Source: Puniceicoccales bacterium
Lineage (GTDB): Bacteria; Verrucomicrobiota; Verrucomicrobiia; Opitutales; UBA9783
DNA length: 64,000 bases
Reading direction: 5' to 3'
Assembly: GCA_031266455.1 (NCBI GenBank)
Contig: JAISBA010000004.1
Location: 9,814-73,813, forward strand
Shown here: positions 24,425 to 61,310 of the stretch, piece by piece
Layout: the number at the start of each line of letters is the position of its first letter
Position numbering within the stretch: the stretch's first letter is position 1
Notes under the pieces: model-generated
Seen by the model: the letters and a program-made list of their open reading frames with translations, nothing else
Database searches by the model: none
What the model was told of the DNA's origin: nothing
Position numbers and translations under genes: made by a program

Positions 24425-26959
24425 TCACATTTCAGAAGAAACCAACAGGGTATGAGAAAGATCCGATTGTAAATACACTTTGGATCGCTCAAAAAGTTCT
24501 TCTAAGGATACACTATCGATGGCTTTTGCATAATTCAACCAGGCATCTTGAGGTAAATCAAACAACTCATTGATGCCGGCGTAAAATGCCTTTTTGGCGA
24601 TTGTTTGCAAACGTGTTTGCTGGCTCACTTTAAGATGCGATCGACATAGGTCAAATTCTTTAGAAGATATCTGACGGTCCAAAACACGTTGCGTCGCTTT
24701 GAATATTTCTGCTTCAACTGTCTTCAAATGGGATGCCTGAGTACTTGCAAACAAACACAACATACCTCGATTTAATCCCGTTAAACGCGTGGCTCCAACC
24801 GTATAAGCCAAACCTAATTTCTCCCTGACTTCGATAACAAATTGGCTCGACAAGCCATTGAATAATTCTTCCAAATAGTCGGCCACATAATAGTCTTTTG
24901 AACCTATACCTGCCATTGGGTAAGCCTGGAAAACCATCGATTGCTCTTTGTTTAATTGGCATTCGCAGTACCGTTCGGAAGTAAAAAAGATTTCATCGGA
25001 CACTTTTTCAAAACAATTTTCCGAAATTCCATCACCGATGGGCTCCAATAATTTTATTAACTCATCCGTAGGCAGCGGACTGACCGCCGATATGACGCAA
25101 TTGGGGCCAACAAAAATTTTTCTAAAATAATGCCAACAGTGTTCCAATCGCAGCGCTTTTACGTCGTCCTCAATCCCATACTGACCTACGGCGTAGGGAT
25201 GTTGTCCAAAAAATTGATGACGCATTTTTTTAAATCCCACATAAAATACATCATCCATCATCTCCTGAATGGAAGCCAGTTGAGAAGCTTTTTCAATTTC
25301 AAATGTTTCCTCTTTAAATCGAGGCATACGCAGCGCTTCCCCCAATAAATGACATCCCATAGCCGTGTTTTGGGGTAAAGATTCAAAAGCCAATCCTATG
25401 TGATTAATCCCCGTAAAACTATTAAACTGGCCTCCTATGGCGTCAACGGCTTCCGCAATTTCACGTGCCGTATGCTTTTCGGTATCTTTCATCAACAAAG
25501 AAGCCACCAAATGCGAAATACCTCGTTGATGTTCCGGTTCGTACAAAGCCCCCCCCAAACTGAGTACCTGCACGTGCGTTTTTGGGAAAGATGGATTATA
25601 CTGCATCACCAAACGTACGCCATTGGGTAAGGTTATCGATTCCACAGGCTGCGTACGTATCTCCGTAGATTTTTTAAAAAAAACCTTTTCCAATGCTTTT
25701 GGCTCCAAAGATACTTTGGTGCAAGTTGCTGGCTTTAAATATTTGCTCACAATTGCCTTTACACTTTTTGCATCCAATTGTTTCAATTGTTCCAAATAGT
25801 GCTTCGAGTACTGCAGATCTCCCAGGCAGGTGTCAGCCCATCCTAAATGGTGAGCTTGCCCCGATACCGTTTTTTGAGTATCTATTTCCGATACAATTGC
25901 TTGCTTAAGCGCCTTCTGCACGTGCTTTGTTTCAATAGCTGCTTCCGCCATACACTGCAAATTTTTCGATAAAAATTCCTCCACGCAAGCACGTTTTTCT
26001 CCATCACATACGTACTGTATCCAAAATAATCCTTGATCAGCCATCCAGGTGGATACATCGATGGAATAAACGTATCTTAACTCTTCTCTCAATTTTTGAT
26101 ACAGCAGCGAGCTGTCACCGCAACCCAGTACATTGGATAAAACTTGTAACTTAGCTCCATCCTTGTGACCCAACCCTGGAATTTTAAATGCCAACACTCC
26201 ACGTACCAATTGGTAGTCTCCATAAAAACGTTCCACCCTTTCCGCCATTTGGAAAGGTTCTCGAGTAATTAAAACCGGTTGCAAACTTTTTGGCAAACAG
26301 GTGGAAAAATAATGATTCACCCTTTCTTGAATCCATTCAAACGACAAATTACCCACAATAACCAACGTCATGTTATTGATGGGATAGCGCTTACGCCAGT
26401 ATTCAACCAAATCTTCACGCGTCAATTGTTCAAAAATACTTTTAATGCCGATGATGGGGAATCGATAGGGATGCTTACGAAATGCGTTTTCAAATACCAC
26501 TTGATTGAGTCGATCCTCCGGATCATCGTTGCACATGTCGATCTCACGCAAAATCACCTTTTTTTCCTTAAGCATTTCTTCGGATGGAAATGTGGGATGC
26601 AACAGCATATCGCTTAAAATATCCAAACCCAATTCCGCAGATTCCGATGAACCATCGTAAGTATAAACGGTTCTATCAAACGACGTGTAGGCATTGAGAC
26701 TGGCTCCCGAGGCTTGTGCTTCCGAAAAGATATCCGCGTACGTACGCCGCTCCGTCCCTTTAAAAACCATATGTTCCACAAAATGAGAAATACCCGCACC
26801 CAAATATTTGTCTTCGTGAATACTGCCTGTTTTTACCCACGCTTGAATTGCAACCAAACCGGTGTGATCAACGGGTAAAAAAATGACCTTGAGTCCATTG
26901 GAAAGTGCAAAGCAACACGGATGATAGATCAAAAATTCTTCAAATGAACACATATCCAA
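24425..26959 (-). CDS. M16-family zinc peptidase, double (fused active + inactive M16 halves)
   Basis: HxxEH zinc motif in ISHFVEHMVFKGT, then EREVILREI-like KEKKVILREI. A second half has a degenerate site (ISHLVASLLMKDT). The track start is TTG at 26959, and ATG at 26953 is an alternative. Confidence 0.8.
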   Translation of the reverse strand: MDMCSFEEFLIYHPCCFALSNGLKVIFLPVDHTGLVAIQAWVKTGSIHEDKYLGAGISHFVEHMVFKGTERRTYADIFSEAQASGASLNAYTSFDRTVYTYDGSSESAELGLDILSDMLLHPTFPSEEMLKEKKVILREIDMCNDDPEDRLNQVVFENAFRKHPYRFPIIGIKSIFEQLTREDLVEYWRKRYPINNMTLVIVGNLSFEWIQERVNHYFSTCLPKSLQPVLITREPFQMAERVERFYGDYQLVRGVLAFKIPGLGHKDGAKLQVLSNVLGCGDSSLLYQKLREELRYVYSIDVSTWMADQGLFWIQYVCDGEKRACVEEFLSKNLQCMAEAAIETKHVQKALKQAIVSEIDTQKTVSGQAHHLGWADTCLGDLQYSKHYLEQLKQLDAKSVKAIVSKYLKPATCTKVSLEPKALEKVFFKKSTEIRTQPVESITLPNGVRLVMQYNPSFPKTHVQVLSLGGALYEPEHQRGISHLVASLLMKDTEKHTAREIAEAVDAIGGQFNSFTGINHIGLAFESLPQNTAMGCHLLGEALRMPRFKEETFEIEKASQLASIQEMMDDVFYVGFKKMRHQFFGQHPYAVGQYGIEDDVKALRLEHCWHYFRKIFVGPNCVISAVSPLPTDELIKLLEPIGDGISENCFEKVSDEIFFTSERYCECQLNKEQSMVFQAYPMAGIGSKDYYVADYLEELFNGLSSQFVIEVREKLGLAYTVGATRLTGLNRGMLCLFASTQASHLKTVEAEIFKATQRVLDRQISSKEFDLCRSHLKVSQQTRLQTIAKKAFYAGINELFDLPQDAWLNYAKAIDSVSLEELFERSKVYLQSDLSHTLLVSSEM

Positions 26960-27019
26960 CTTATTTCATTGTCTCAAAAAAAGCCACTCCTGTAAAGTTG
27001 AAAACCTCCTTTTATAATT

Positions 27020-27053
27020 CAAAAAATAAACCCTACGTGTTCTCGTAGGGTTT
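27020..27053 (-). terminator. Rho-independent terminator downstream of the 139-aa Cys/His-rich gene
   Basis: The minus-strand transcript reads AAACCCTACG-AGAACA-CGTAGGGTTT followed by ATTTTTT. This is a perfect 10-bp stem (27028-27037 / 27044-27053) starting 21 nt after the stop codon. Confidence 0.75.
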
Positions 27054-27073
27054 ATAAATTTTGTAAGTCTTCG

Positions 27074-27493
27074 TTACCTATTCGGGCAATCCGGCGTGTG
27101 CACCATTCCTTGTCCTGTGAATATCATTGGACAATGTGGACAATGGTGACTGCGATCAGGATCATTCGGGCAATTTGGACCATGACCTCTTGACATAGGA
27201 ACATGACAATACGGACAATCACGATCAGGATCATTCAGGCAATCCGGCATATGGTTTCCTTCTATCATACCACAATGTGGGCACATCGCATGAGGATCAT
27301 TCGGACAACCCGGCATATGATTTCCCATTGACATGGGAACGTGGCAATGTGGACACATCGCATAAGGATTTTGAGGGCAATCCCATTCATCGTGCCCTTC
27401 TTGACCACAATGCGGACATACTACAGCCAGTCCCGGTAATGTCGCCATTAATTTAAATGCAATTAAACAAAGATATTTTTTCATGCAGTTCAT
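27074..27493 (-). CDS. Cys/His-rich tandem CX2C...H...C (zinc-knuckle-like) protein with putative signal peptide, 5 units
   Basis: The 139-aa ORF starts MNCMKKYLCLIAFKLMATLPGLAVV. Five units follow: CPHCGQEGHDEWDC (exact CX2CX4HX4C), CPHCHVPMSMGNHMPGC, CPHCGMIEGNHMPDC, CPYCHVPMSRGHGPNC, CPHCPMIFTGQGMVHTPDC. It ends in CPNR. Two paralogues lie at 33.6 and 34.1 kb. Its own terminator and a conserved upstream region support a real gene. The start is ATG 27493 or ATG 27484 (MKKYL). Confidence 0.7.
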   Translation of the reverse strand: MNCMKKYLCLIAFKLMATLPGLAVVCPHCGQEGHDEWDCPQNPYAMCPHCHVPMSMGNHMPGCPNDPHAMCPHCGMIEGNHMPDCLNDPDRDCPYCHVPMSRGHGPNCPNDPDRSHHCPHCPMIFTGQGMVHTPDCPNR

Positions 27494-27560
27494 CTTGTTA
27501 ACTTTTTTAATATTAGCAAGCTTTTTGTTAATCTTTTTTATAAATTACTTTTACTAAATT
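27494..27560 (-). repeat. Conserved upstream (promoter-bearing) segment 'P' of the Cys/His-rich gene family, copy A
   Basis: Copy A reads cttgttaacttttttaatattagcaagctttttgttaatcttttttataaattacttttac. It recurs at about 85-90% identity by eye at 33777-33840 and 35610-35670. It contains TATAAA on the gene strand. Confidence 0.7.
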
Positions 27561-27775
27561 AAAACTTTAAAATAAGTTAAATATTCATTAAACACAAATT
27601 ATTTTTCTTACGTTACAACGCCCACCCTAACGCTTATTGAACATTTTTAATGCTTTACCTAAACGCCATATCGCTTTTCTACTTCACATTTCATATTGCA
27701 GTCCGTACATCAATAATCGAAGCTTTCGTTGAAAGACCGTAGGTTTATGAGGAAACTTTTACACATCTTGCTTCA

Positions 27776-29248
27776 TTATTGGGATAAGAGCTCCCTTAAA
27801 AGGCGGTCCACCTCACTTATAGGAACCTTTCCTTGCGTATGCTTTACAACTTGCCCTTTTAATACATTCAAAGCCTTTTCCTTTCCAGAACGAAACTCTT
27901 CGGCAGGTTTGGGGAAAGCATCTATAATTTCCGCACACATTATCTTTAAGGCATCCACATCTACAGAAATTTCTAACCCTTTATCTTTCACAATCTTCTG
28001 TGGATCTTCGCCTGTCTTAAAGGTAGCATCAAATACCTCTTTTGCGCTCTGTTTAGATAGGATACCTGAATCCACCAACTCTACCAACGCTGCAACTTGG
28101 CGAGGATCCATTTTCAAATTCTTCCAGGCTTGATGCATATCTTCTGCGGCAAGTTCTCTCAATAAATCATTTACAATCCAATTGGCAATACCCAGAGGAT
28201 TTTTAGCATAAAAGCCCAAAGCGGATTCAAAAAAATCGCTCAATCTTTTATCGGGGCAAATGACGGAAGTCACCGTATACGGCAATTGTAACGTCCGCAA
28301 ATAACGTTCCTGCTTGTCGAAAGGAAACTCCGGCAAAGTTTTTTTCTGAGCCTGAATATCTGCTTCCGATAAACAAATTGGACATAAATCTGGATCCGTA
28401 AAATAACGGTAATCGTGGGCATCTTCTTTGGATCGCATGACAAAACTCTCAGACTTATCGGCATCCCAGCGTCGCGTCTCCTGCACAACGGCTTGCCCCC
28501 GTTCAATGGCGTACAGTTGTCGATTGATTTCGTGTCGAACACCGTTGCACACCCCCGAAATCGAATTCAAATTCTTCAACTCAACTTTGGTCCCTAAGCT
28601 GGTTGTTCCTTGAGGCCTTACGCTGATGTTTGCATCGCACCGCAATTGTCCTTTTTCCATATCGCAATCGGAAGCATCCACGTACTGCAAATGCATGACC
28701 AAAGATTTTAAATAGGCAAAAACCTCTTCCGGAGAATGCATATCGGGCTCGGATACAATTTCGATAAGCGGTGTCCCCGCACGATTGTAATCGATCCAAG
28801 ATATTTGCCCCAAATGGGTTAATTTACCTACATCCTCTTCCAGATGAATTCGATTCAAAGCTACCTTACGATGTTTTCCTTGAATATTTCTGGCAGGACC
28901 CTCAAGTTCAATTTCGACATGTCCACCGAGACATAAGGGCTGATCGAATTGGGAAATTTGATAATTTTTAGGAGAATCTGGGTAAAAATAATTTTTACGA
29001 TCCCACTTGCATTGGCGTGCAATCTCGCAGTCAAATACCAATCCCACCTGCACCGTTTTCAAAACGGCTGCCTTATTGAGTACGGGTAAAGAGCCTGGTA
29101 ATCCCAAAACAACTTCATCCACCAGGGTATTCGGCTCAACACCATAACGATAAGGTGCTCGCGTAAACAACTTCGATTGCGTCTTTAGTTGAACGTGAAC
29201 TTCTAACCCAATAACAGCTTCGTATTGCGTCATATTAAAACAGATCAA
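27776..29248 (-). CDS. gatB: Asp/Glu-tRNA(Asn/Gln) amidotransferase subunit B
   Basis: YEAVIGLEVHVQL start, a typical GatB core and a C-terminal YqeY-like tail. It overlaps the gatA stop by 4 nt. Confidence 0.95.
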   Translation of the reverse strand: MICFNMTQYEAVIGLEVHVQLKTQSKLFTRAPYRYGVEPNTLVDEVVLGLPGSLPVLNKAAVLKTVQVGLVFDCEIARQCKWDRKNYFYPDSPKNYQISQFDQPLCLGGHVEIELEGPARNIQGKHRKVALNRIHLEEDVGKLTHLGQISWIDYNRAGTPLIEIVSEPDMHSPEEVFAYLKSLVMHLQYVDASDCDMEKGQLRCDANISVRPQGTTSLGTKVELKNLNSISGVCNGVRHEINRQLYAIERGQAVVQETRRWDADKSESFVMRSKEDAHDYRYFTDPDLCPICLSEADIQAQKKTLPEFPFDKQERYLRTLQLPYTVTSVICPDKRLSDFFESALGFYAKNPLGIANWIVNDLLRELAAEDMHQAWKNLKMDPRQVAALVELVDSGILSKQSAKEVFDATFKTGEDPQKIVKDKGLEISVDVDALKIMCAEIIDAFPKPAEEFRSGKEKALNVLKGQVVKHTQGKVPISEVDRLLRELLSQ

Positions 29249-33422: not shown

Positions 33423-33451
33423 AGTAAAATCTTTGAGAACAATTTTGTCAA
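33423..33451 (-). promoter_or_regulatory. Candidate sigma70-type promoter for pheT-gatCAB (TTGACA-N17-TTTACT)
   Basis: The minus strand reads cgcgTTGACAaaattgttctcaaagatTTTACTttcgaggcATG. The -35 is a perfect consensus and belongs to repeat U. The -10 is weak (4/6) and lies only 8 nt from the ATG, implying a near-leaderless mRNA. Sequence-pattern call only. Confidence 0.3.
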
Positions 33452-33494
33452 CGCGAATTTAAATTGTAAACTATTCGAAAATTTCCTAATCAAC
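33445..33494 (-). repeat. Repeat 'U' copy 1 (50 bp); other copies at 33843-33894 and 35675-35726
   Basis: Copy 1 is ttgtcaacgcgaatttaaattgtaaactattcgaaaatttcctaatcaac. Copy 3 is ttgtcaacgcgaatttaaatcgtaaactattcgaaaatttcccaatcaac. Copy 2 is ttgtcaacgtgaatttaaatcgcaaaccactcgaaagttttccaatcaat. Confidence 0.85.
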
Positions 33495-33533
33495 TAAAAA
33501 ACACTCCTGTACAGTTGAAAACCTCTCTATAAT

Positions 33534-33567
33534 TCAAAAAACAAACCCTACAAAAGATGTAGGGTTT
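33534..33567 (-). terminator. Rho-independent terminator downstream of the frameshifted Cys/His-rich paralogue
   Basis: The minus strand reads AAACCCTACA-TCTTT-TGTAGGGTTT followed by GTTTTTT. It is the homologue of the 27020-27053 hairpin, with a compensated stem change (G:C to A:T). Confidence 0.7.
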
Positions 33568-33589
33568 ATAAATCTTGTAAGCCTTCACA

Positions 33590-33776
33590 TTACCTATTCG
33601 GGCAACCAGGCCTATGATGTCCTCCACGTTCACCACACTGTGAGCACATACGATCAGGACAAATTGCTTTCATTATGCCCATCGTGACCACAATAGGGAC
33701 ATGTCATAGCCATTCCTGGCAGTGTCGCCATTAATTTAAATGCAACTAAATAAAGATATTTTTTCATATGGCTCAT
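33590..33776 (-). pseudogene. Frameshifted two-unit paralogue of the Cys/His-rich zinc-knuckle-like family
   Basis: My translation gives (MSH)MKKYLYLVAFKLMATLPGMAMTCPYCGHDGHNESNLS* and then, in another frame, CPDRMCSQCGERGGHHRPGCPNR*. Removing one T from the run at 33661-33663 (gene strand AATTTG) restores CPYCGHDGHNESNC, an exact CX2CX4HX4C unit, and one continuous ORF. The length is not a multiple of 3. Confidence 0.7.
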
Positions 33777-33819: not shown

Positions 33820-33849
33820 TTTATAGATTACTTTTTACTTACTTGTCAA
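33820..33849 (-). promoter_or_regulatory. Candidate promoter TTGACA-N18-TATAAA of the frameshifted paralogue
   Basis: On the minus strand, TTGACA is at 33849..33844 and TATAAA at 33825..33820. The spacing and boxes are the same as the 35652-35681 copy. Confidence 0.45.
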
Positions 33850-33894
33850 CGTGAATTTAAATCGCAAACCACTCGAAAGTTTTCCAATCAATTT

Positions 33895-33954
33895 CTACCA
33901 ACGAATACGAACACATCCATTCTGACCCACTAAACGTTCTTGCGTCTTGTAATC
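33895..33954 (-). pseudogene. 60-bp fossil copy of the 3' end of the 35727-37625 gene
   Basis: The reverse complement translates to DYKTQERLVGQNGCVRIRW*. The intact gene ends DYKTQERLAGQNGCVRIRW*. It directly follows repeat U copy 2, as in the intact locus. Confidence 0.85.
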
Positions 33955-34040
33955 AATTGGGAAAAATGACCTAGTCCACTGGAAAATGTAAAACAATACG
34001 GGTTATAGGTCAAAAATTCTTCAAACGAACATACGTCCAA
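33951..34040 (-). pseudogene. About 90-bp fossil copy of the 5' end of the M16 peptidase gene (source 26868-26959)
   Basis: The reverse complement TTGGACGTATGTTCGTTTGAAGAATTTTTGACCTATAACCCGTATTGTTTTACATTTTCCAGTGGACT... matches M16 TTGGATATGTGTTCATTTGAAGAATTTTTGATCTATCATCCGTGTTGCTTTGCACTTTCCAATGGACT... The ATG is lost (ATATGT to GTATGT) and there are indels further in. Confidence 0.8.
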
Positions 34041-34112
34041 CTTGTTTTATTGTCTCAAAAAAACCAGTACTGTACAGCTAAAAACCTCCTTTTATAAATT
34101 TTGTAAGCCTTA

Positions 34113-34511
34113 TTACCTATTCGGACACCTAGGCTTATGGTTTCCTCCAAATTTACCACACTGCGGACACTTCGAATTCGGGTGAGTACAATCTCTTGCA
34201 TTATGGTTTCCTTCACAATATGGACATGTATAGCGAGAACACCTAGGCTTATGGTTTCCTCCAAATTTACCACACTGCGGACACATCGAATTTAGATGAA
34301 TACAAGCTCTTGCATCATGGATTTTTCCACAATATGAACATGTAAAGCGAGGACACCTAGGCATATGGTTTCCTCCAAGTTTACCACACTGCGGACACTT
34401 TGAATTCGGATGGACACAAAATTCTGCAGCATGTGTTCCTCCACAATATGGACATGTATAGCGAGAACACCTAGGCTTATGGTTTCCTCCAAATTCAAAA
34501 CACTCTGGACA
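34113..34511 (-). repeat. Intragenic tandem repeat, 114-bp (38-aa) period, about 3.5 copies
   Basis: The protein units are CPECFEFGGNHKPRCSRYTCPYCGGTHAAEFCVHPNSK, CPQCGKLGGNHMPRCPRFTCSYCGKIHDARACIHLNSM, CPQCGKFGGNHKPRCSRYTCPYCEGNHNARDCTHPNSK and CPQCGKFGGNHKPRCPNR*. The DNA motif acacctaggcttatggtttcctccaaatttaccacactgcggaca recurs every 114 bp. Confidence 0.9.
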
Positions 34512-35546
34512 CATCGAATGGACGCAAACTCCCGCAGCATGCCTTTCTTGATCACAATATGGGCATATATAATGAGGACAACAGGGCATATGTCCAACTT
34601 CACCGCACTGCGGACACATGTAGCCCGGACTATTTGGACAATCCGGCCTATGGTTTCTTCCAAATTCACCACACTGCCGACACTTACTTATTGGACAATC
34701 GAACACATGAAATCCTGCCATGGGCCTAAGGCAATGCGGACACATGGGCTCACCGTAGTATGGGTAAATCGGACACCCGCGCACATGAGGTCCTGTCATG
34801 AGAACACGACAATGCGGACATATGGACACCTTGTCGTGTAGGCAGCTCGGACACCCGGATGCATGAGGTCCTGCCATGGGAATATGACAACTCGAACACA
34901 TGGACACATTGTAGTATGGGCAATCGGGCGTATGAGGTCCTGTCATGGGCTCAAGGCAATGCGGACATTCGCGATTAGGATCATTCGGACAATCCGGTAT
35001 ATGTCTTTCCGATATGGGAACATGACAACGCCGACACATGAGCACATTGTAGTATGGGCAATCGAGCGCATGAGGTCCTGTCATGGGCTCAAGACAATGC
35101 GGACATTTGCGATTAGGATCATTCGGGCAATCCGGTATATGACTTCCCAATATAGGAATATTACACTGCTGGCATATCGGATTAGGATAATCAGGACAAT
35201 CTCTTACATTATGAATTTCTCCACAATGTGAACATGTACAGTCAGGACAAGCAGGCCAATGGTTTCCTCCAGATCTACCACAGTACGAACATCTTGAACA
35301 AGTATTCATTCTTTCATGATCTTTCGGATATTCATAGGAAAGATAATCGGACCTATGGCTTTTATAGGAAAGACAATTGAAACTATAGCTTTCTTTATGG
35401 CCACCACAGTGCGAACATCTTGCATTTGGATGGGCACAATCCCTTGCCTCATGCCCTCTTTGACCACAATACGGACACGCATAGTTAGGACAACAGTGCT
35501 TATGGTTAGGTACACATTCACCACAATGCGGACATACTTCAGCCAT
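34113..35546 (-). CDS. Giant Cys/His-rich array of about 24 CX2C...H...C zinc-knuckle-like units (477 aa); leader start codons lost, possibly decaying or cytoplasmic
   Basis: The intact 477-codon ORF has 72 Cys by my hand count. It includes exact CX2CX4HX4C units (CPYCGQRGHEARDC), CX2CX6HX3C units (CPQCGKFGGNHKPRC) and CX2CX7HX3C units (CPHCLEPMTGPHALDC). It ends in CPNR like both paralogues. The region homologous to the signal peptide is in frame upstream but both ATGs are ATA. Confidence 0.6.
   Translation of the reverse strand: MAEVCPHCGECVPNHKHCCPNYACPYCGQRGHEARDCAHPNARCSHCGGHKESYSFNCLSYKSHRSDYLSYEYPKDHERMNTCSRCSYCGRSGGNHWPACPDCTCSHCGEIHNVRDCPDYPNPICQQCNIPILGSHIPDCPNDPNRKCPHCLEPMTGPHALDCPYYNVLMCRRCHVPISERHIPDCPNDPNRECPHCLEPMTGPHTPDCPYYNVSMCSSCHIPMAGPHASGCPSCLHDKVSICPHCRVLMTGPHVRGCPIYPYYGEPMCPHCLRPMAGFHVFDCPISKCRQCGEFGRNHRPDCPNSPGYMCPQCGEVGHMPCCPHYICPYCDQERHAAGVCVHSMCPECFEFGGNHKPRCSRYTCPYCGGTHAAEFCVHPNSKCPQCGKLGGNHMPRCPRFTCSYCGKIHDARACIHLNSMCPQCGKFGGNHKPRCSRYTCPYCEGNHNARDCTHPNSKCPQCGKFGGNHKPRCPNR
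34899..35174 (-). repeat. Intragenic tandem repeat, 138-bp (46-aa) period, 2 copies
   Basis: CQQCNIPILGSHIPDCPNDPNRKCPHCLEPMTGPHALDCPYYNVLM is followed by CRRCHVPISERHIPDCPNDPNRECPHCLEPMTGPHTPDCPYYNVSM. The C..CHVP.S..H.P.CPNDP signature is shared with the 139-aa paralogue. Confidence 0.9.
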
Positions 35547-35651
35547 TCCTGGCAGTGTCGCTATTAATTCAAATGCAACTAAATAAAGATACCTTTTTAT
35601 GCCGTCTATTTTGTTAGCTTTTCTAATATTAGTAAGCTTTTTGTTAATCTT

Positions 35652-35681
35652 TTTATAAATTATTTTTTACTTATTTGTCAA
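35652..35681 (-). promoter_or_regulatory. Candidate promoter TTGACA-N18-TATAAA upstream of the 477-aa Cys/His-rich gene
   Basis: The minus strand reads cgcgTTGACAaataagtaaaaaataattTATAAAaag. The -35 is at 35681..35676 and the -10 at 35657..35652. It is conserved in the 33.8-kb copy. Confidence 0.45.
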
Positions 35682-35726
35682 CGCGAATTTAAATCGTAAA
35701 CTATTCGAAAATTTCCCAATCAACTT

Positions 35727-37625
35727 CTACCAACGAATACGAACACATCCATTCTGACCCGCTAAACGCTCTTGCGTCTTGTAATCCTTTTGTCCATTAC
35801 CTCCATTTCCAAATTGACCTAACATAGCAACCTGCTGCCCGGCATAATGACTCTCACTACCCCTTGTTGCCGGTACACCCATAGCTCCTCCATCACAACG
35901 AATTTCCAAAGAATGAACGTGGACCGTAGTTGCCTCACCTGCAGCTAGCTCTGAGGCTTGCCCGACATGGATGGAAACAATACCTCCACTTTGTACACCC
36001 TCGATTTTCTCCATTCTAAAAGTACCCGAACCTCCACCGTTTCCACTGATGCTAAAATCCGTCAAATATTGTACATCGAGATAGATTCTCATATTTTTTT
36101 GCGATTTTGTCCTCGCATCCATCTTTGACATCCAACTGTTCTCATTTACTTGATTCTCTGTAACGTTATGAGAAAAAGAAACACCGTAAGAATAGACGTA
36201 GTCTTTCTGTTTTCTGTCATTGTATATCATGTTTAATACAAAATTTCTAGTTTCCTTATCTTTAAGTTCCACGCATTGATTAAATCGAGGTAGGTTATGA
36301 GGGTTATCAGTTCTATAGACCAAAAATTCATTACTTGTTGCTGGAAACCTACTCATACGGCCGGTAACATTGGTGATGCGCGCTGGACCTGTCACATATA
36401 TAGGTGTTTTAGACCATATCCATCCTCTCCATGAATGATATTCTAAATTTAAATCACTCGTCTGTTCCACTGGGGTCCCCCAATCCCGATATTGTAAAGC
36501 AGGACTACCGCTTCCGCCTGCACCGATCGCTTCAATCGTAATGGTATGCACGCCTTCCGGAATCGCCCAAAAGTATTTCCCGGGCTGATCAAAAACAACT
36601 TGCCCATGATTTTGTTCGACAACAATATCGGTTGCTTCACAAACATCCTCCTCCATTGATATTTTAAGATCTTCCAACAAATGATCGTACGCTTCACTAC
36701 ATTTGTGCAATTTTTCTAGTTCACACGCAACATTTTGCTCGCGCATGGAAACGTACAACCAAAGTGTAAAAAAAGAATCTACATCGATGCAAAAATGCTT
36801 GTCTTTACAATTACACCACGTGACGTGTGGAGAGAACAAATTTAAATAAGGTTCGCAAAGGGGGTCCAAACGTTGCATTAATTTAACAACGTTACTCGCA
36901 ACATCATCAAATTCGGATAACCGCCTAAAGGCATCCCATGCAATATGACTTATCTTAAGTTTAGCTGAAAACTTGCAAGGGATGAGGATAAAAGTAGAAG
37001 ACTTACACATCAAAGGAAAAGACCAGGTATCGGTTGGGTGCAAAGATAAATCACCGCATTTATCCATAAGCAGATCATTAAAAAAATGCGCCGTGTAGTT
37101 CAGAACATTTAGGAAATCAGCTGCGGATAATAATGAAAGCGCTTCCATTAAGTGCTGTCGATGCGCCCGTATCGGTTCAATAAAATACTGATTCCAAATA
37201 TCGTGCACATTTTGGATATCTTTTTGCGTAATATCCAATGGAAGCCCTACTAAACAATCTTCGTTATCCTGATAGGCATAATGTTGTAACACGCAGTCAG
37301 GTTGCTTTATCAGATGTGGTAATGTGTGCTGAAAATAGGGATATCCCCATACATAATTGGCAATGCTACCACACACCCAATAACTCCCAAACTGAACGGC
37401 AAATGGGGGCGGAGATTTGTATTTTCGGTACAAATTCAGAACGTTCGGCAATTCTTCTGCGGAAAAAGACTTTCTACAAAAAATTTCTGCAGGAATGTAT
37501 AAAAAACCTTTATCTTTTTGATTATTTGAATCTTTTAAAACAAAAGTCGGACAATGGGGAAATGCAAACAGCATTTCGGTAGCCAAACACAAAGCTACAG
37601 TAAAACATTTACTGTACTTAAACAT
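35727..37625 (-). CDS. Hypothetical exported protein; unknown N-terminal about 340 aa plus C-terminal region with GAGGSGS / GNGGGSG / GNGGNG glycine clusters
   Basis: 632 aa. The N-terminus MFKYSKCFTVALCLATEMLFAF is hydrophobic and leader-like. The C-terminal part contains GKYFWAIPEGVHTITIEAIGAGGSGS, FSISGNGGGSGTF and GQFGNGGNGQ, and ends GQNGCVRIRW. This pattern is reminiscent of glycine-rich beta domains of phage, viral or surface fibre proteins. I recognised no catalytic motif. Confidence 0.6.
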   Translation of the reverse strand: MFKYSKCFTVALCLATEMLFAFPHCPTFVLKDSNNQKDKGFLYIPAEIFCRKSFSAEELPNVLNLYRKYKSPPPFAVQFGSYWVCGSIANYVWGYPYFQHTLPHLIKQPDCVLQHYAYQDNEDCLVGLPLDITQKDIQNVHDIWNQYFIEPIRAHRQHLMEALSLLSAADFLNVLNYTAHFFNDLLMDKCGDLSLHPTDTWSFPLMCKSSTFILIPCKFSAKLKISHIAWDAFRRLSEFDDVASNVVKLMQRLDPLCEPYLNLFSPHVTWCNCKDKHFCIDVDSFFTLWLYVSMREQNVACELEKLHKCSEAYDHLLEDLKISMEEDVCEATDIVVEQNHGQVVFDQPGKYFWAIPEGVHTITIEAIGAGGSGSPALQYRDWGTPVEQTSDLNLEYHSWRGWIWSKTPIYVTGPARITNVTGRMSRFPATSNEFLVYRTDNPHNLPRFNQCVELKDKETRNFVLNMIYNDRKQKDYVYSYGVSFSHNVTENQVNENSWMSKMDARTKSQKNMRIYLDVQYLTDFSISGNGGGSGTFRMEKIEGVQSGGIVSIHVGQASELAAGEATTVHVHSLEIRCDGGAMGVPATRGSESHYAGQQVAMLGQFGNGGNGQKDYKTQERLAGQNGCVRIRW

Positions 37626-47406: not shown

Positions 47407-47712
47407 TCACCAAGAAGCCTTTGTTACACCCGGCAGTAAACCCTTCAATGCAAATTCACGCAAAGTTAAACGCGAAACACCAAATTTCCTAAAGTATCCA
47501 CGCGCACGCCCTGTAATTGAACAGCGATTCCGCACACGCACACGTGAAGAATTTCTAGGCAACAAAGACAATTCACGTTGAACTTTAAAAAATTCATCAT
47601 CCGAAACCTCTAAATCTAATAACTTAGACTTCAATGCCTGACGTTTCTCCAAATGTTTCTCAACCAAACACACACGCTTTTTATTCCGCTCGACAGAAGA
47701 TTTTTTCGCCAT
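47407..47712 (-). CDS. rpsN: 30S ribosomal protein S14 (long, non-zinc form)
   Basis: 101 aa ending in [21 protein letters not shown]. It has one Cys only, so it is the C-minus type. Confidence 0.95.
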
Positions 47713-54043: not shown

Positions 54044-56194
54044 TTACGACCTTGCCGGTGCGCGTGATACAGTTTCAACAATTTTAGCCAATAAACTTGC
54101 CGGGACCTGTTCAAAATGCGAAGGCTCCATCGAATAAGAAGCACGTCCTTTTGTCAGAGAACGAACATCCGTTGCGTAACCAAACATCATCTCCAAAGGA
54201 ACAAAAGCCATAATAATACCCGCAGTTCCCTTGGTTTCCATTCCTTGTATTTGTCCACGACGACGGTTTAGGTCTCCCATAACATCCCCTTGATATTCTT
54301 CGGGGGTTGCCACTTCAACTTTCATGATGGGCTCCAAAAGAATTGGATTTGCCTTCTTCATCGCATCTTTGAAAGCAAAAATTCCAGCCATTTTGAATGC
54401 CAATTCCGAAGAATCTACCTCGTGGAAACTACCATCCACAATACGAACTCTAAAATCTACGACAGGATACCCGGCCACAACACCATTTTGAGCCCCTTCC
54501 ATAAGGCCTTCCTGCGTCGGTTTTATAAACTCACGAGGGATAACGCCTCCGACAATTTCATTGACAACTTCAATGCCTTTGCCTTTTTCAAGCGGCTCAA
54601 GTTTAATGACAACATGCCCGTATTGTCCGCGACCTCCACTCTGACGAATAAATTTACCTTCACCCTCTGCAAATTGAACAATGGTTTCACGGTAAGCAAT
54701 TTGAGGACGACCCGCATCCGCCTCTACCTTAAATTCACGAAACAATCGATCTCTAATAATTTCCAAATGCAGCTCACCCATACCGGAAATCAACGTCTGC
54801 CCTGTTTCCACATTACTGCTGACCCTAAACGTAGGATCCTCCTCAGCCAAACGTTGTAATCCCATAGATAGACGTTCCTGATCCGACTTGGTTTTGGGTT
54901 CAATGGACATGCTGATAACGGGTTCCGGAAATGTTGGAGGCTCCAACTGCACATTTAAATCTTTATCGCATAAGGTATCCCCCGTCACAACCTCCCGAGG
55001 GCCAATTAAAGCACAAATATCCCCCGAAAAAGCCTCTTCTATGTCCGCCCGTTCGTTGGCTTTCATAACCACCAATCGGCTGATTCTTTCCTGCTTACGC
55101 GTACGTGGATTATATAAAACCATGCCCTTACGAACCACCCCGGCATACACACGATAAAAAATTAATTTACCTACGTAAGGATCCGTCATCAACTTAAATA
55201 CTAATCCCACAGGCTTACTACGATCGTCCGGCAAAATTTCCACCTTTTCTTCATCTCGATTACCTTGCGTAGGGGGCAAATCTAAGGGATTTGGCAAGTA
55301 ATCTACGATCGCATCCAACACCATTTGAACACCTTTATTCTTAAAGGCACTTCCCGGAATAACGCCCAAAAACTTCATCGACAGGGTTGCCCTACGCACC
55401 GCTCCTTTAATCGCATCGATGGATAAAACTTCACCATCGAGATATTTGACCGCCAAATCATCATCGCAATCTGCCAAAGTCTCTATCAATTGTTCTCGAT
55501 ATTGACGCGCCGACGCTACATATTCGTCAGGAATAGCAACGCTCTCGTAACGCATTCCATTGGGATCCTGCTCATCATAAACGTAAGCTTTTTCTTCAAT
55601 CAAATCAATAAGTCCACGAAAATTATCCTCCTGGCCAATGTTCAAAAACAATGGATGCGCATTGCCTCCCAATTTTTCACGAATATCTTTAACGGCATTT
55701 AGAAAGTTTGCACCCGTACGATCCATCTTATTGACAAAAGCCAAGCGAGGGACACGATACTTATCCATTTGCCGCCAAACCGTTTCAGATTGAGGTTGAA
55801 CTCCGGCAACCGCGCAAAAAACTCCCACGGCACCGTCCAATACACGCAGAGAACGTTCTACTTCCGCCGTAAAATCGACATGGCCTGGCGTATCAATAAT
55901 GTTAATACGATGAGGAATTCCTTCAAAAGGGCCTTTTTTATTTGTCCAATCGCAGCTAATAGCCGCCGCTGTAATGGTGATACCTCGTTCCCGTTCTTGC
56001 TCCATCCAATCGGTTACGGTTTCACCTTCGTGAACTTCCCCAACTTTATGCACTACCCCCGTGTAAAACAAAATACGCTCCGTCGTCGTGGTTTTACCGG
56101 CATCAATATGGGCGGCAATACCAATATTACGCAAGTATTCCAATGGATTCTTACGTTGGGGAGAATTTGCGTCGGAAAGATCTTCTTTGCTCAT
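54044..56194 (-). CDS. fusA: Translation elongation factor G
   Basis: G1 [25 protein letters not shown], and full domains II-V. 716 aa. Confidence 0.95.
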
Positions 56195-56216
56195 AATTTT
56201 ACTCTACCTACCTTAT

Positions 56217-56690
56217 TTAAGACCAACGCAAGTGCGCAAATGCGCGATTTGCTTGGGCCATACGATGAACTTCTTCTTTCCTCTTAACAACTTCTCCCGA
56301 ATTGTTATACGCCTCTATAATTTCACTTGCCAAGGTCTCCATCATGGCTCCCTTACGCTTGTTCGCGGTTTGGACTAACCAGCGAAAAGCCAAGCTTACC
56401 TGACGTTCATACCCAACTTCCATGGGAACTTGATAGGTAGCCCCTCCGACACGACGACTTTTAACCTCCAACTTTGGACGTATGTTTTCAAGTGCAGCCA
56501 ACAAAAAGTCCATAGGATCCCCTTTGCCCAAATTTTCGCTTACACGCTCAATGGCACCATATACAATGCGTCTTGCCAAAGATTTTTTACCGGAACGCAT
56601 AACGCGATTCGTCAATTGTTCAACCAATATACTTTTATAACGAGGATCTTCCTTTAATTTTCTACGTACTGCTCTTCTACGACGTGCCAT
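56217..56690 (-). CDS. rpsG: 30S ribosomal protein S7
   Basis: MARRRRAV...DPRYKS, GKKSLARRIVY, and an ending of AFAHLRWS. Confidence 0.95.
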   Translation of the reverse strand: MARRRRAVRRKLKEDPRYKSILVEQLTNRVMRSGKKSLARRIVYGAIERVSENLGKGDPMDFLLAALENIRPKLEVKSRRVGGATYQVPMEVGYERQVSLAFRWLVQTANKRKGAMMETLASEIIEAYNNSGEVVKRKEEVHRMAQANRAFAHLRWS

Positions 56691-56701
56691 AATTTAAAAA
56701 T

Positions 56702-57088
56702 CTACTTCTTTTTACTCTCTTTCGGCCGTTGAACACCATACTTTGAACGGCTACGGTGGCGCTTTTCAACTCCCTGTGCATCCAATGTGCCACGAACAAC
56801 GTGATACCGCACTCCCGGCAAATCGGGAACACGACCGCCACGCACCAATACCACACTGTGCTCTTGCAAATTGTGCCCCTCATCGGGTATGTAGGCAATA
56901 ATTTCCACACCGTTTGTTAAACGGACTTTGGTTACTTTACGAACAGCAGAATTAGGTTTCTTCGGCGTACGCGTCATCACTTGTACGCAAACCCCACGCT
57001 TGAATGGATTTTTTCCCAATGCAGGCGCTTTTGACTTTGCATAAACCCTTGCTCTCGACTTTAAAATTAACTGGTTAATCGTAGGCAT
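56702..57088 (-). CDS. rpsL: 30S ribosomal protein S12
   Basis: MPTINQLI start, PKKPNSA.RKV, and [17 protein letters not shown]. Confidence 0.95.
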
Positions 57089-57183
57089 CTTATATTAATT
57101 CTCAAGAAAATTAGCGTTAGCATCCCATACATTGCAAGTCTTTTTTGATAAAAAAGCAATTAAAGAACTCTTCGCGTTATGCA

Positions 57184-60100
57184 CTATTCAACTCCTTTGC
57201 TTTCAGATTCCTCGGTTGTTTCGCACAAAGACCGAATGGTCATATGGCGATATTTTGCCATCCCTGTTCCCGCAGGAATTAAATTACCCATGATAACATT
57301 CTCCTTAAATCCCTTTAATGTATCCATCTTTCCCAATGTTGCCGCTTCGGTTAGCACGCGTGTCGTTTCTTGGAATGAAGCTGCCGAAATAAAACTATCC
57401 GTTTCAAGGGAAGCTTTTGTAATACCCAATAAGATAGGCTCTCCTTCCGCAGGTTTACCACCCGCAATCAAAACTTTTTCGTTAGCGGCCAAAAAGTCCG
57501 CCCGATCCACCTGTTCTCCCCAGAAATAATCGGTATCACCCGGATCCGTCACGCGTACTTTACCTAACATACGTGCAATGATAACCTCCAAATGCTTGTC
57601 ATCAATGGTCACACCCTGCAAACGATAAACCTTTTGGATTTCCGTCAACAAATACTCTTGTAAGGCGTGTACCCCTAAAACTGTCAAAATTTCATGCGGA
57701 TCTGCAGCACCTTCCGTTAAACACTGACCCTTTTTTACCAAATCTCCCGGATAAACAATTAATTGCTTGCCGTGCGGAATTAAGTGCTCCTCGTTCTCTT
57801 CCGTCTCTGGATTTGTTATCAACAAGCGCTTTTTACCACGGACCATTCCCGAAGCCACCGATACAATGCCTTCAATCTTGGCTATTTCCGAAGCATCTTT
57901 GGGTCTCCGCGCTTCAAATAATTCGGCCACACGAGGTAGCCCACCCGTAATATCTTGGGTCCGAGACGCCGAACGTGGAGTTTTTGCCAGCAACGCTCCA
58001 GGATATATCTCATCGTCCACGTTAACGATGACCTGGGCGCCGACTGGAATAGCGTACGTAGCCAACACCTTATGAGTGTCCTTCTTGTCCACAATTTCAA
58101 TGGAAGGATTCAAATCTTCTTGGTGTTCAATGACAACACTCGTCATTTGACTACTAGAATCATCCACCGCACGGCGGATCGTAATCCCAGACATCATATC
58201 TTTAAAACGAACAATGCCTCCCTTTTCGGATAAAATCGGGATGTTATGCGGATCCCACATGGTTAAAACACTGCCACTTTCAATAAAATCACCGTCGGTG
58301 ACCGTCAAAAGTGAACCCGCAAAGATGTGAATCGTTTCAACTTCACGACCTTCCTCATCAATAATGCAGACGGTTCCCGTCTTGTTTAACACAATGGTTG
58401 CATCATCGGCCGTCTTTACGGTACGTAGTCCGCTATACTTAACTCGCCCCGAATGTCTTACGCGACTTTCTGGAGACTTTAACACTTGGCTTGCAACACC
58501 GCCAACGTGGAAAGTACGCATCGTTAATTGCGTGCCCGGTTCTCCAATCGATTGGGCGGCAATAATACCTACCGAAGTTCCCTCCTCAACCAAATGATGT
58601 GTCGACGGATCCAGGCCATAAGCTTTAGCGGGAATACAATCTTTGTTCATGTGGGTCAATGGAGATAAAACCTTTACGCGGACTATACCCATTTCTTCCA
58701 CTTGTTCGGCCATTTTCTTCGTAATGATTTCACCACGATGAATAATGACTTCTTCTGGATTGATCGGATTTACAACATTTTCACAAGAACAGCGTCCCAC
58801 AATCCGTTCCGACAACTTAACAATTTCCTCGTCACCTTCATAAACAGCTTGCTTCCATACACCTTTATTGTAATCCAAATTGTCGGTATCTGGCACAATC
58901 ACGCAATCCATCGCAACATCGCACAATTTACGCGTTAGGTAACCCGCATCTGCCGTTTTTAAGGCGGTATCCGCCATACCCTTACGAGCACCATGCGTTG
59001 AAATAAAATACTCAAGGACATTCAATCCTTCCCTAAAAGAGGACAAAATGGGCTGTTCGATAATTTCACCGGAGGGCTTAGCCATCAAACCACGCGCTCC
59101 ACACAACTGACGTACCTGTTGACGATTACCCCGTGCTCCCGAGTCCATCATCATGTACACCGAATTCACCTCCCCATCGCGCATATCTTCAAGACCTTTA
59201 AATGCCATCTTGGCAATTTCATCCGTGGCATTCGTCCAAATATCGATCACCTTATTGCATCGTTCACCGTTGGTGATAATACCTTTTTTAAATTGAGATT
59301 CAACTTCTTTAATCTTTTTGCGGCTCTTTTCAATAATCATCGGCTTTTCTTTGGGAACTACCATATCCTCAATGCTTATGGAAGCCCCTATCCTTGTGGC
59401 CATCAAAAAACCCATTTGTTTCAAAGAATCCAACACATGTACGGCCTCCGAACGATCTACCAAATTGTAAGCCAAAGCAATCAACTCGGATAATTTATTT
59501 TTACCTACCGGCTCATTGATAAAACCCATGCGCGTAGGCCAGATAGTGTTAAAGATTGCCCGACCAATCGTCGTGCGAATGAATTTAGCACCTTTATTGC
59601 CAAACTGTGTCGGCTTACCGTAGTCCGGATTTGGCATATCCACCCAATCGTGCAAGGTTAATATACTTTCGGCTTGTGCCATTAGTGCTTCCTGAATGCC
59701 GGACACAACGGGAGCACGAACCATTTTTGCAGGCTTTTCCGTTAAATTTAACGTCAAATAATAAATCCCCAACACAATATCCTGTGAAGGTGTTAAAACA
59801 GGTTTACCGCTCGAAGGAGCAAACATGTTATTCGTTGAAAGCATCAATAAACGCGCTTCCATAATTGCCTCCGTCGATAAAGGTACGTGTACGGCCATCT
59901 GATCTCCGTCAAAATCGGCATTAAACGCAGAACACACCAACGGATGCAAACGAATGGCATCACCTTCAATCAATACGGGTTCAAAAGCTTGTATGGACAA
60001 TCGATGCAATGAAGGCGCACGATTGAGCAACACCGGATGTCCCTTGGTAACTTCAGCCAAAATATCCCATACTTCCGGCGCCTTATTTTCGATCAATTTA

Positions 60101-61302
60101 CGTGCTGAACGCACCGTATGCGCAAACCCTAATTCTTTCAAACGACGAATAATGAACGGCTCAAATAAAATTAAAGCCATCTTTTTGGGCAAACCGCACT
60201 GATGCAATTTCAAATCAGGGCCAATCACAATCACCGAGCGACCACTGTAATCAACACGCTTACCTAGCAAGTTTTGCCGAAACCGACCCTGCTTACCTTT
60301 TAGCATGTCGCTTAACGACTTGAGAGGTCGATTTCCTGAACCCGTTACGGGACGCGCACCGTGGCAACCGTTATCAAACAGTGCATCCACGGCTTCCTGA
60401 AGCATACGTTTTTCGTTGTGAATAATCACATCGGGCGTTTTCAATTGCAGTAAATTTCGTAAACGATTGTTACGATTAATAACACGACGGTACAAATCAT
60501 TCAAGTCACTGGTGGCAAACCTTCCTCCTTCAAGGGGAATAAGTGGCCTCAAATCGGGCGGAATGACGGGAATAACATCCAATACCATCCATTCGGGTCG
60601 AGCACCTGATTGCAGAAAACCGTTCATCATCTTTAAACGTTTTGCCAGCTTTTTCTTAATTTGCTTCGAACGTGTATTGTAAATTTCCATTTGCATCGAC
60701 TCTACTTCAGCCGATAAGTCAATTTGTGACAACAAATCTTTAATAGCTTCAGCACCCATCTTGGCCACAAAAGCGTCTTCTCCAAATTCTTCTTGAGCCA
60801 CCTGGTATTCTTGTTCCGTCAATAATTGCTTTTCTTCCAAAGACGTACGACCTGCATCGATCACAATATAATTTTCATAATAAACGACTTTTTCCAAGTC
60901 ACGCATGGTCATTTCCAACAATAAACCAAAACGACTTGGCATTGTCTTTAAAAACCAAACATGCGCTACAGGAACGGCCAAATTGATATGCCCCATCCAT
61001 TCGCGACGTACACGCGATAGCGTCACTTCCACACCGCAACGATCACAAACAACCCCCTTATACTTGATACGTTTGTATTTACCGCAAGCACACTCATAAT
61101 CCTTAACAGGCCCAAAAATTCGCTGGCAAAACAATCCTCCCGATTCGGGCTTAAATGTACGATAATTGATTGTTTCAGGATTTTTTACTTCACCCTTAGA
61201 CCATCGACGAATGGTATCCGGAGATGCCACCGCAATACTTACCGAATCAAACCCTTGTTCTTCGTCAAAACCAAGTACTTCACGAACTTCTTCTCTAGTC
61301 AT
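57184..61302 (-). CDS. rpoC: DNA-directed RNA polymerase subunit beta'
   Basis: Zinc-binding C..C..C..C near the N-terminus (YECACGKYK...CDRCGVEV), the catalytic [12 protein letters not shown], and 1372 aa. Confidence 0.97.
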
Positions 61303-61310
61303 AACTCCTT

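Follow-up and report, generated by a model that had tools for sequence, protein, structure and literature searches.

A candidate exported string of zinc-knuckle-like CCHC units in a termite-gut Puniceicoccales bacterium

What would a bacterium do with a tandem array of zinc knuckles placed behind an export leader? Such tandem CCHC knuckles typify the proteins of eukaryotes and retroviruses, and in the literature we found no description of exported bacterial zinc-knuckle arrays. The question is raised by a gene on contig JAISBA010000004.1 of the Puniceicoccales bacterium assembly GCA_031266455.1 (Opitutales, family UBA9783), of which a stretch of 64,000 nucleotides (positions 9,814 to 73,813; hereafter the window) was analyzed. 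An initial annotation made from the letters alone had placed the open reading frame (ORF) at 27074–27493, with correct coordinates and without stating its strand, which is minus. The encoded protein is identical to the NCBI entry LBJ78_00765, a 'hypothetical protein' of a Puniceicoccales metagenome-assembled genome (MAG). Our preferred reading, to which we assign a probability of roughly 40%, is that the gene encodes an exported string of one-metal CCHC sites with which an anaerobic symbiont would bind or buffer zinc, or some other soft metal, outside its cytoplasm.

The N-terminus of the 139-residue protein begins with MNCMKKYLCLIAFKLMATLPGLAVVCPHC, and the parts of the product follow one another in a simple order: MNCMKKYLCLIAFKLMATLPGLAVV, then exactly five Cys–Cys–His–Cys units and the C-terminal end CPNR. 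Translation of the ORF and the unit coordinates (Table 1) confirmed this architecture as it had first been described, including the exact CX2CX4HX4C spacing of unit 1; the loops of the other units had been given as X6–9, a range exceeded by the ten-residue loop of unit 5. The mature part contains 15 cysteines, three per unit, to which the leader adds a non-conserved one. A six-frame scan of the 64 kb with the pattern C..C.{3,12}H.{3,4}C returned 31 matches, 30 of them within this gene and two paralogous copies standing 6–8 kb away, and the sole match elsewhere lay at 47532. The clustering of the motif in the three gene copies is not due to chance. Over 43 units in six family proteins the consensus read C-P-x-C ... 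H-x-P-x-C-P, with Pro after the first Cys in 34 units and after the last Cys in 31, and the distal His and distal Cys were present in every unit. The closest orthologue kept the ligand positions of all five units and the Cys/Pro scaffold was invariant across five orthologues; indels altered linkers and unit number, and total Cys counts, including their parity, varied. Units 2–5 would represent a new stretched variant of the knuckle, with about two extra residues before the His, one fewer after it, and the CPxCG start shared with the canonical form. An alternative ligand register, pairing H-X3-C of one unit with C-X2-C of the next, was rejected as less parsimonious, since every family protein starts with CX2C directly after the leader. 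Five of the six proteins end within a few residues of H-X3-C-P, and P0013 has a longer C-terminal tail. In the orthologue P0006 (locus L007, 1051–1443; ...GNHKPHCPHCHVTGPHKPGC...) the last Cys of one unit doubles as the first of the next (HKPH-C-PHC), which suggests shared or bridging ligands in some family members. The motif CRCFGPNTPDCP is present twice in this protein, and its canonical knuckle stands at the C-terminus instead of the N-terminus.

The leader was judged by classical signal-peptide rules. It combines a KK n-region with a hydrophobic core (best 19-residue window, mean Kyte–Doolittle hydropathy 2.1; 2.0–2.1 across the family), and around the predicted cleavage site the family has a helix breaker (Pro or Ser) at −4 and either G or V at −3, with A invariant at −1. 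The lipobox [LVI][ASTVI][GAS]C is absent, the residue before the first Cys being V, I, T or M in all copies, and a lipoprotein was rejected on this ground. Because the leader follows the classical rules and lacks a lipobox, it is probably a Sec-type export signal cleaved by signal peptidase I after Ala23, in agreement with the type of leader originally proposed.

Each of the ten orthologue pairs gave a whole-gene ratio of nonsynonymous to synonymous substitution rates (dN/dS) within 0.18–0.40; for gatB and the M16 peptidase gene on either side the ratio was 0.05–0.10, with a dN about ten times lower. Analysis by region in three orthologue pairs yielded 0.19–0.58 for the leader, 0.10–0.35 for unit 1 plus its linker, and 0.64–1.47, a near-neutral figure inflated by ascertainment because conserved sites were taken out before the calculation, for units 2–5 minus their conserved C/H/P positions. 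Such tests are weak, as six genomes carry the family. Unit 1 was the most conserved unit among the orthologues. In the longer paralogue, an ORF of 477 residues, the repeats differ by 15–23% at the nucleotide level with dN/dS of 1.1–1.2, and every Cys and His ligand is retained; its frame is open for 477 codons, against 7 and 47 stops in the other two same-strand frames. Judging from the regional ratios and from the ligands retained in the diverged repeats, selection appears to maintain the leader, unit 1 and the Cys/His/Pro scaffold, with the rest free to change or diversifying. ORF 27074–27493 thus looks like a real gene under selection, and the low whole-gene ratio, the conserved upstream segment and the terminator described below bear out the first impression of a genuine expressed unit.

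In its amino-acid makeup (13% Cys, 12% His, 9% each of Met and Asp, Lys absent, isoelectric point (pI) 5.8, net charge −8) the mature part would fit a metal binder and not a nucleic-acid binder. Three Cys and an invariant His per unit, the unconserved Cys parity, the extra His, Met and Asp, and the unconstrained surfaces argue for one tetrahedral metal site per unit and not for a disulfide framework. In the mechanism that we propose, the first 23 residues would direct the chain to the Sec pathway and be removed by signal peptidase I behind the invariant Ala, and an acidic polypeptide of ~116 residues would be released to the periplasm or the cell surface. Each Cys-X2-Cys...His-X3/4-Cys unit would hold one metal through three thiolates and one imidazole, most likely Zn(II), with Cu, Ni or Co as possible alternatives, and the protein would form a flexible string of five small metal beads. 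Selection would preserve the leader together with the first canonical knuckle and the scaffold of ligands and Pro, while unit number, loops and linkers drift freely; because of this pattern, high-capacity extracytoplasmic metal binding seems most likely, and not sequence-specific nucleic-acid recognition. At the interface between symbiont and host, the protein would buffer, store or scavenge zinc or some other soft metal at high capacity. Observed are the sequence pattern and its conservation, the range of the family, its paralogy and the way selection acts on it; export, metal binding and physiological role are what we infer from sequence. The initial annotation had raised the objection that an oxidizing periplasm suits thiolate zinc sites poorly, a concern that is weakened if, as seems probable, the source is an anoxic termite-gut symbiont.

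Several observations weigh against this reading. A conserved Lys lies inside the hydrophobic core of the leader, and the leader has been lost in two copies with intact arrays, once through a 2-nt deletion (orthologue L005) and once through a change of ATG to ATA (477-residue paralogue); export may be inessential, or the leaderless copies may be dying. Neither a metal transporter nor a metal-sensing regulator is encoded next to the gene, and no riboswitch adjoins it. AlphaFold2, run with a five-sequence family alignment, gave a low-confidence model (mean predicted local distance difference test score (pLDDT) 53, predicted template modelling score (pTM) 0.27) in which residues 3–15 form a lone helix, and the metal sites obtain no structural support from it. 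That unit 1 (GQEGHDEWDCPQNP) is so well conserved may point to a specific partner, something for which a protein serving purely as a buffer would have no use. Finally, rapid turnover, paralogue expansion and a host-restricted lineage suit an effector equally well.

Does the protein belong to a described family? Whole proteins compared with Pfam, NCBIfam, PADLOC and PHROGs gave nothing significant, so that the initial inability to name a bacterial family still holds. An exhaustive HMMER search with the family profile against 1.84 billion representative proteins (E ≤ 1e-3) returned 11 matches, namely four family members and seven outsiders aligned via unit 1 only. Six of these seven were bona fide Pfam zf-CCHC proteins (E 2e-12 to 8e-4), some of them with eukaryote-like architectures such as an RRM domain plus seven knuckles, which supports the assignment of unit 1 to the zinc-knuckle type. 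As an isolated peptide, unit 1 scored 10.6 bits against PF00098 (E = 0.65), below the gathering cutoff of 20.8 bits; the canonical unit of the 477-residue paralogue (CPYCGQRGHEARDC) reached 19.3 bits and the C-terminal canonical unit of P0006 20.8 bits. The whole 139-residue protein was not listed for PF00098, and the stretched units, searched as isolated peptides, matched no knuckle, TRAF or metallothionein model in Pfam. PDB sequence searches produced marginal alignments only, to a FYVE domain, the TRAF-type finger 2d9k (E = 0.036), the XRN2 knuckle, HIV NCp7 and the S27ae ribbon. Unit 1 may thus work like, and may descend from, a zinc knuckle, and membership of the gene in PF00098 is not established.

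The likeness to zf-CCHC proteins (retroviral nucleocapsid, CNBP, Lin28, XRN2) lies in the C-X2-C-G-X2-G-H-X4-C arrangement of unit 1, with Gly after the second Cys and before the His, in tandem units with short linkers, and in the bona fide zf-CCHC proteins retrieved by the family profile. Units 2–5, however, miss the spacing, with 6–10 residues before the His and 3 after it, and the protein is bacterial with an export-type leader. The basic, aromatic-bearing nucleic-acid surface expected of zf-CCHC was not found: the protein is acidic and Lys-free, and Pro takes the place of the aromatic residue after the first Cys. Together with the low PF00098 score, these features make the eukaryote-like nucleic-acid-binding module initially considered a poor fit. 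TRAF-type fingers follow the pattern C-X2-C-X11-12-H-X3-4-C-P and form tandem rods in TRAF6 and TRAFD1/FLN29. They share with our family the CCHC ligand order, the H-X3/4-C-P ending and tandem units with linkers of 5–7 residues, but family loops comprise 3–10 residues instead of 11–12, and TRAF fingers are eukaryotic, cytosolic and engaged in protein interactions. With no Pfam match to PF02176 at E ≤ 10 and the weak phmmer match to 2d9k as the sole link, homology to them is not established. SmtA forms one cytoplasmic Zn4Cys9His2 cluster, and SmbP, PcoE and SilE contain no Cys. SmtA/BmtA and SmbP, PcoE/SilE resemble the protein in being small and very rich in Cys/His (and Met), with ligands apparently selected over surfaces, and the periplasmic examples SmbP and PcoE/SilE carry leaders too; they differ in that no sequence similarity exists and the CCHC units here are discrete and regular. 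A bacterial metallothionein (SmtA/BmtA) was rejected, as neither Pfam nor NCBIfam gave a match. Conotoxin- and defensin-like families are comparable in evolutionary mode only, with a conserved upstream region and signal, a fixed Cys framework, a hypervariable rest, and gene duplication and loss; they are eukaryotic and disulfide-based, and the analogy is one of pattern, not of structure or function. A DsbA-like CPHC redox motif was likewise discarded, as the X2 residues vary (CSYC, CPCC, CPIC, CPNC, CPQC) and the chain leaves no space for a thioredoxin fold.

The family is carried by six genomes, all of one narrow lineage, and a word-index search added the member P0013. A word-index search with the 477-residue paralogue as query returned nothing at E ≤ 1e-3, probably due to composition correction on the repetitive query, and scans of metagenome and viral contigs with the family patterns revealed no further members. 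Every member sits between gatB and the M16 peptidase gene, on contigs from sister samples, and overall identity among orthologues is 48–69%. Two members are found in the GenBank MAGs Cc175_bin121 (JAIRKR) and Ncb351_bin56 (JAITAV), accessions that form part of the termite-gut MAG set of Mies et al., mBio 2024 (PMC11257099); the hosts are the dry-wood termites (Kalotermitidae) Cryptotermes cavifrons and Neotermes cubanus (PMC11257099). [quoted passage not shown] Nucleococcus (PMC11257099). The genome of the window probably belongs to this reduced-genome clade, as judged from its taxonomy, a GC content of 42% and visible pseudogenes. The gene would be a lineage-specific accessory gene of a termite-gut Puniceicoccales/Opitutales symbiont. 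Lesions were observed in several orthologues. At L009 the array is frameshifted, the start is GTG and a terminator arm is broken; at L005 the array is otherwise intact after loss of the leader; and at L007 (1030–1050) 32 nt of the upstream segment are missing, including the extended −10-like element, by a deletion that falls between two AAAAAG(A)TTAACA direct repeats and leaves the coding region intact. In some lineages the family therefore seems dispensable.

A host-directed effector is the competitor that survives best, and we regard it as possible though on the whole unlikely. In this explanation the protein is exported and then released into the flagellate by type II secretion, vesicles or lysis, its eukaryote-type CCHC fingers bind host protein or nucleic acid, and an arms race drives diversification of unit number and surfaces. 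A conserved leader combined with a hypervariable mature part, expansion and patchy loss is typical of effector families, and the present family offers a conserved leader, hypervariable units, a paralogue of ~21 units, a dN/dS that reaches or exceeds 1 beyond the scaffold and a patchy pattern of loss. The specific conservation of unit 1, whose nearest relatives are zf-CCHC proteins with eukaryote-like architectures, points in the same direction, as do the TRAF-like spacing of other units with the weak match to 2d9k and the putative endosymbiosis of related small-genome Opitutales families with termite flagellates, in an order that includes the intranuclear Ca. Nucleococcus (PMC11257099). On the other hand, a Sec leader reaches the periplasm only; secretion machinery was not seen in the window and an outer-membrane route is not known. 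The mature protein, acidic and Lys-free, is unlike the nucleic-acid-binding knuckles compared, absent constraint accounts equally well for a dN/dS near 1 at non-ligand positions, and the intracellular lifestyle is described for related lineages and not established for this MAG. More doubtful is the fuller scenario that a symbiont inside termite-gut flagellates acquired or invented eukaryote-type CCHC fingers, fused them to an export leader and diversified them (from 2 to ~21 units) as secreted effectors acting on host proteins or nucleic acids.

The gene lies among housekeeping genes (pheT, gatCAB, M16 peptidase, UDG, enoyl reductase, ferritin, TIM and PGK), directly flanked by gatB (27776–29248) and a two-module M16 peptidase gene (24425–26959). 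Both flanking signals of the initial annotation, a terminator with a perfect stem and a conserved upstream segment, were recovered (Table 1). The terminator is kept in orthologues, and T-runs on both sides of the hairpin mean that it could work in both directions; in the 33.5-kb paralogue the terminator stem shows a compensatory change of G:C to A:T. About 55 nt upstream of the ATG are near-identical in seven of eight gene copies, and the segment is present three times in the window (repeat family D3; three matches against zero expected). Its extended −10-like element may act as a promoter element. A consensus scan found no sigma-70 site on the strand of the gene, the 27494–27552 segment contains no clear Shine–Dalgarno sequence, and an Rfam scan of 26900–27900 revealed no riboswitch or known RNA. 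Functional coupling to the M16 peptidase was rejected, as a terminator stands between the genes and the M16 fragment in the duplicated cassette is merely a scar.

Table 1 Features of the CCHC gene, its flanking signals and its paralogous cassettes (window coordinates)
Feature	Coordinates	Strand	Description
CCHC gene	27074–27493	minus	ATG start, 139 aa (136 aa with the second ATG, 27484, as start); leader and five CCHC units
Putative leader	27425–27493	minus	MNCMKKYLCLIAFKLMATLPGLA; probable signal peptidase I cut after Ala23 (G at −3, A at −1)
Unit 1	27377–27418	minus	CPHCGQEGHDEWDC; X4 / X4, zinc-knuckle pattern CX2C-G-X2-G-H-X4-C
Unit 2	27305–27355	minus	CPHCHVPMSMGNHMPGC; X8 / X3
Unit 3	27239–27283	minus	CPHCGMIEGNHMPDC; X6 / X3
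Unit 4	27170–27217	minus	CPYCHVPMSRGHGPNC; X7 / X3
Unit 5	27086–27142	minus	CPHCPMIFTGQGMVHTPDC; X10 / X3
Units 2–5	27086–27355	minus	stretched CX2C-X6-10-H-X3-C, mostly followed by Pro; N/D/P linkers prone to indels
Intrinsic terminator hairpin	27026–27055	minus	perfect 12-bp stem, 6-nt loop, T-run; downstream of the stop codon
Conserved upstream segment	27494–27552	minus	extended −10-like TGCTAATAT at 27510–27518, ~17 nt before the ATG
Paralogue 2	33590–33776	minus	upstream segment and leader (MSHMKKYLYLVAFKLMATLPGMAMT) as in the CCHC gene; one canonical knuckle, one stretched unit
Paralogue 2 hairpin terminator	about 33541–33570	minus	
Duplication scar	33895–34063	minus	M16 peptidase 5′ end and upstream DNA (matches 26892–26982) fused to the 3′ end of the 632-aa gene (matches 35650–35786)
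Paralogue 3	34113–35546	minus	477-aa ORF, about 21 CCHC units from 114-nt and 138-nt tandem repeats
Decayed leader and upstream segment of paralogue 3	35547–35668	minus	leader region recognizable at 35547–35600

The initial annotation, correct for the gene itself, had missed the two paralogous cassettes, the loss of the leader in two copies and a pseudogenized relative. Paralogue 2 carries a 1-nt frameshift after its first unit, with which an independent assembly of the same sequencing run agrees. Paralogue 3, whose long repeat array rests, like all sequences compared, on a short-read MAG assembly, begins as read with MAEVCPHC and is leaderless and basic (net charge +11). Its leader has decayed by changes of the start ATG to ATA, of Lys to Glu and of Met to Ile, and no ATG, GTG or TTG stands ahead of the internal ATG at 35546. 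The scar between the two paralogues joins the first ~30 codons of M16 (MDVCSFEEFLTYNPYCFTFSSGL...) to the last ~20 codons of a 632-residue gene (...DYKTQERLVGQNGCVRIRW and stop) and is supported by the repeat families D8, D10 and D11. The cassette was therefore copied from the 27-kb locus to a site upstream of pheT and then tandemly duplicated; the copied cassette comprised the upstream segment, the gene, the terminator and the start of M16. No such cassette insertion was present in the sister genomes L001, L005 and L009. A 52-nt segment normally upstream of pheT occurs in three copies (33444–33495, 33842–33893 and 35674–35725; 81–96% identical), and the pheT upstream region was co-duplicated along with the CCHC cassettes.

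Duplication and erosion of this kind also underlie the explanation that the family consists of decaying or functionless, repeat-prone ORFs whose cassettes multiply and wear away in a shrinking genome, the intact copies being those not yet broken. We consider this improbable. The frameshift in paralogue 2, the leaders gone from paralogue 3 and L005, the frameshifted array and lost terminator arm of L009, the 32-nt upstream deletion of L007 and the confinement to one narrow clade are all in line with it. Against it stand the whole-gene dN/dS in all ten orthologue pairs, the ligand codons kept despite the divergence among repeats, the open frame of 477 codons next to the stops of the other same-strand frames, and the conservation of the upstream segment and of the terminator with its compensatory stem change.

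Still less probable is a cytoplasmic nucleic-acid chaperone, comparable to CNBP or retroviral nucleocapsid, whose N-terminus remains uncleaved and whose array binds RNA or DNA in single-stranded form. Unit 1 has the canonical knuckle spacing, two leaderless copies retain intact arrays, and the leaderless 477-residue paralogue is basic and contains the canonical unit at 19.3 bits; for this paralogue the explanation seems more plausible. The protein of 27074–27493, however, is acidic and without Lys, the stacking aromatic residue after the first Cys is replaced by Pro in 34 of the 43 units, and the leader, which conforms to signal-peptide rules, is among the best-conserved parts.

We place lower again the idea of a disulfide-cross-linked envelope protein, like chlamydial OmcA/OmcB or the Cys/Pro-rich wall proteins of Planctomycetes. 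The source lineage belongs to the Planctomycetes–Verrucomicrobia–Chlamydiae (PVC) superphylum, and leader, Cys/Pro richness and this origin speak for it; OmcA/OmcB resemble the family in being exported, Cys-rich, of the PVC superphylum and connected with an intracellular lifestyle. They are not homologous to it, the family giving no Pfam match to chlamydial outer-membrane protein families and having no lipobox, and an invariant His with an odd number of Cys (three) in each unit, Cys totals and parity that vary among orthologues, and the presumably anoxic habitat all disfavor the OmcA/B-like protein that the initial annotation had entertained. Very improbable, finally, are a small multihaem cytochrome of the c type, with CXXCH motifs following a Sec leader, or a precursor of a ribosomally synthesized and post-translationally modified peptide (RiPP) processed by the neighboring M16 peptidase: CPHCH and CPYCH occur twice in the window protein and four times in P0002, distal His/Met are abundant, and the M16 gene is a conserved downstream neighbor, but CXXCH counts per protein are 2, 2, 4, 1, 1 and 0 (none in P0013), the residue after the second Cys is G in 16 of 43 units, all 43 units have a far His and Cys, unlike CXXCH, the M16 gene lacks a signal peptide and lies behind a strong terminator, and no radical-SAM, cyclodehydratase, lanthipeptide or similar maturase was found within ~10 kb.

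Some features of the surrounding DNA were recorded as well. The 632-residue protein (35727–37625, minus strand) is lineage-specific; its N-terminus (MFKYSKCFTVALCLATEMLFAF) resembles a signal sequence and its C-terminal half is rich in Gly. It matched nothing in Pfam or PADLOC, and among the PHROGs it gave only a weak match to phrog_4474 (E = 8e-6), whose function is unknown. In L001 and L005 frameshifts have broken the orthologue in two, and the gene appears to be eroding in the sister genomes. Third-position GC of the two CCHC genes (27074–27493 and 34113–35546) and of this orphan is 0.33–0.36, compared with 0.40–0.41 for housekeeping neighbors, and their overall GC is similar to or above that of the neighbors despite the lower third-position value. 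Between 24000 and 64000, GC skew is strongly and persistently negative, with the cumulative skew falling to −4.8, and the minus strand carries nearly all large ORFs, among them those at 54044–63998 and the ribosomal-protein/rpoA block. Skew and strand bias fit a window that lies on a single replichore arm and contains neither origin nor terminus.

To return to the question raised at the outset, the type of unit is known, the CCHC knuckle, and the architecture appears to be new, combining an export leader, stretched acidic units, a bacterial symbiont lineage and rapid modular evolution; an exported acidic bacterial CCHC array with stretched loops fits no described family. The three cassettes in one window bring together repeat-driven gene birth, expansion and decay in a shrinking genome. 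If the family turned out to consist of effectors, it would be the first 'zinc-knuckle effector' family and a rare molecular entry point to the uncultured symbioses of termite flagellates and Verrucomicrobiota. If, as we favor, the protein binds metal outside the cytoplasm, it would represent a new type among the periplasmic or secreted proteins that bind zinc or soft metals, and a way into the metal economy between a genome-reduced symbiont and its protist host.

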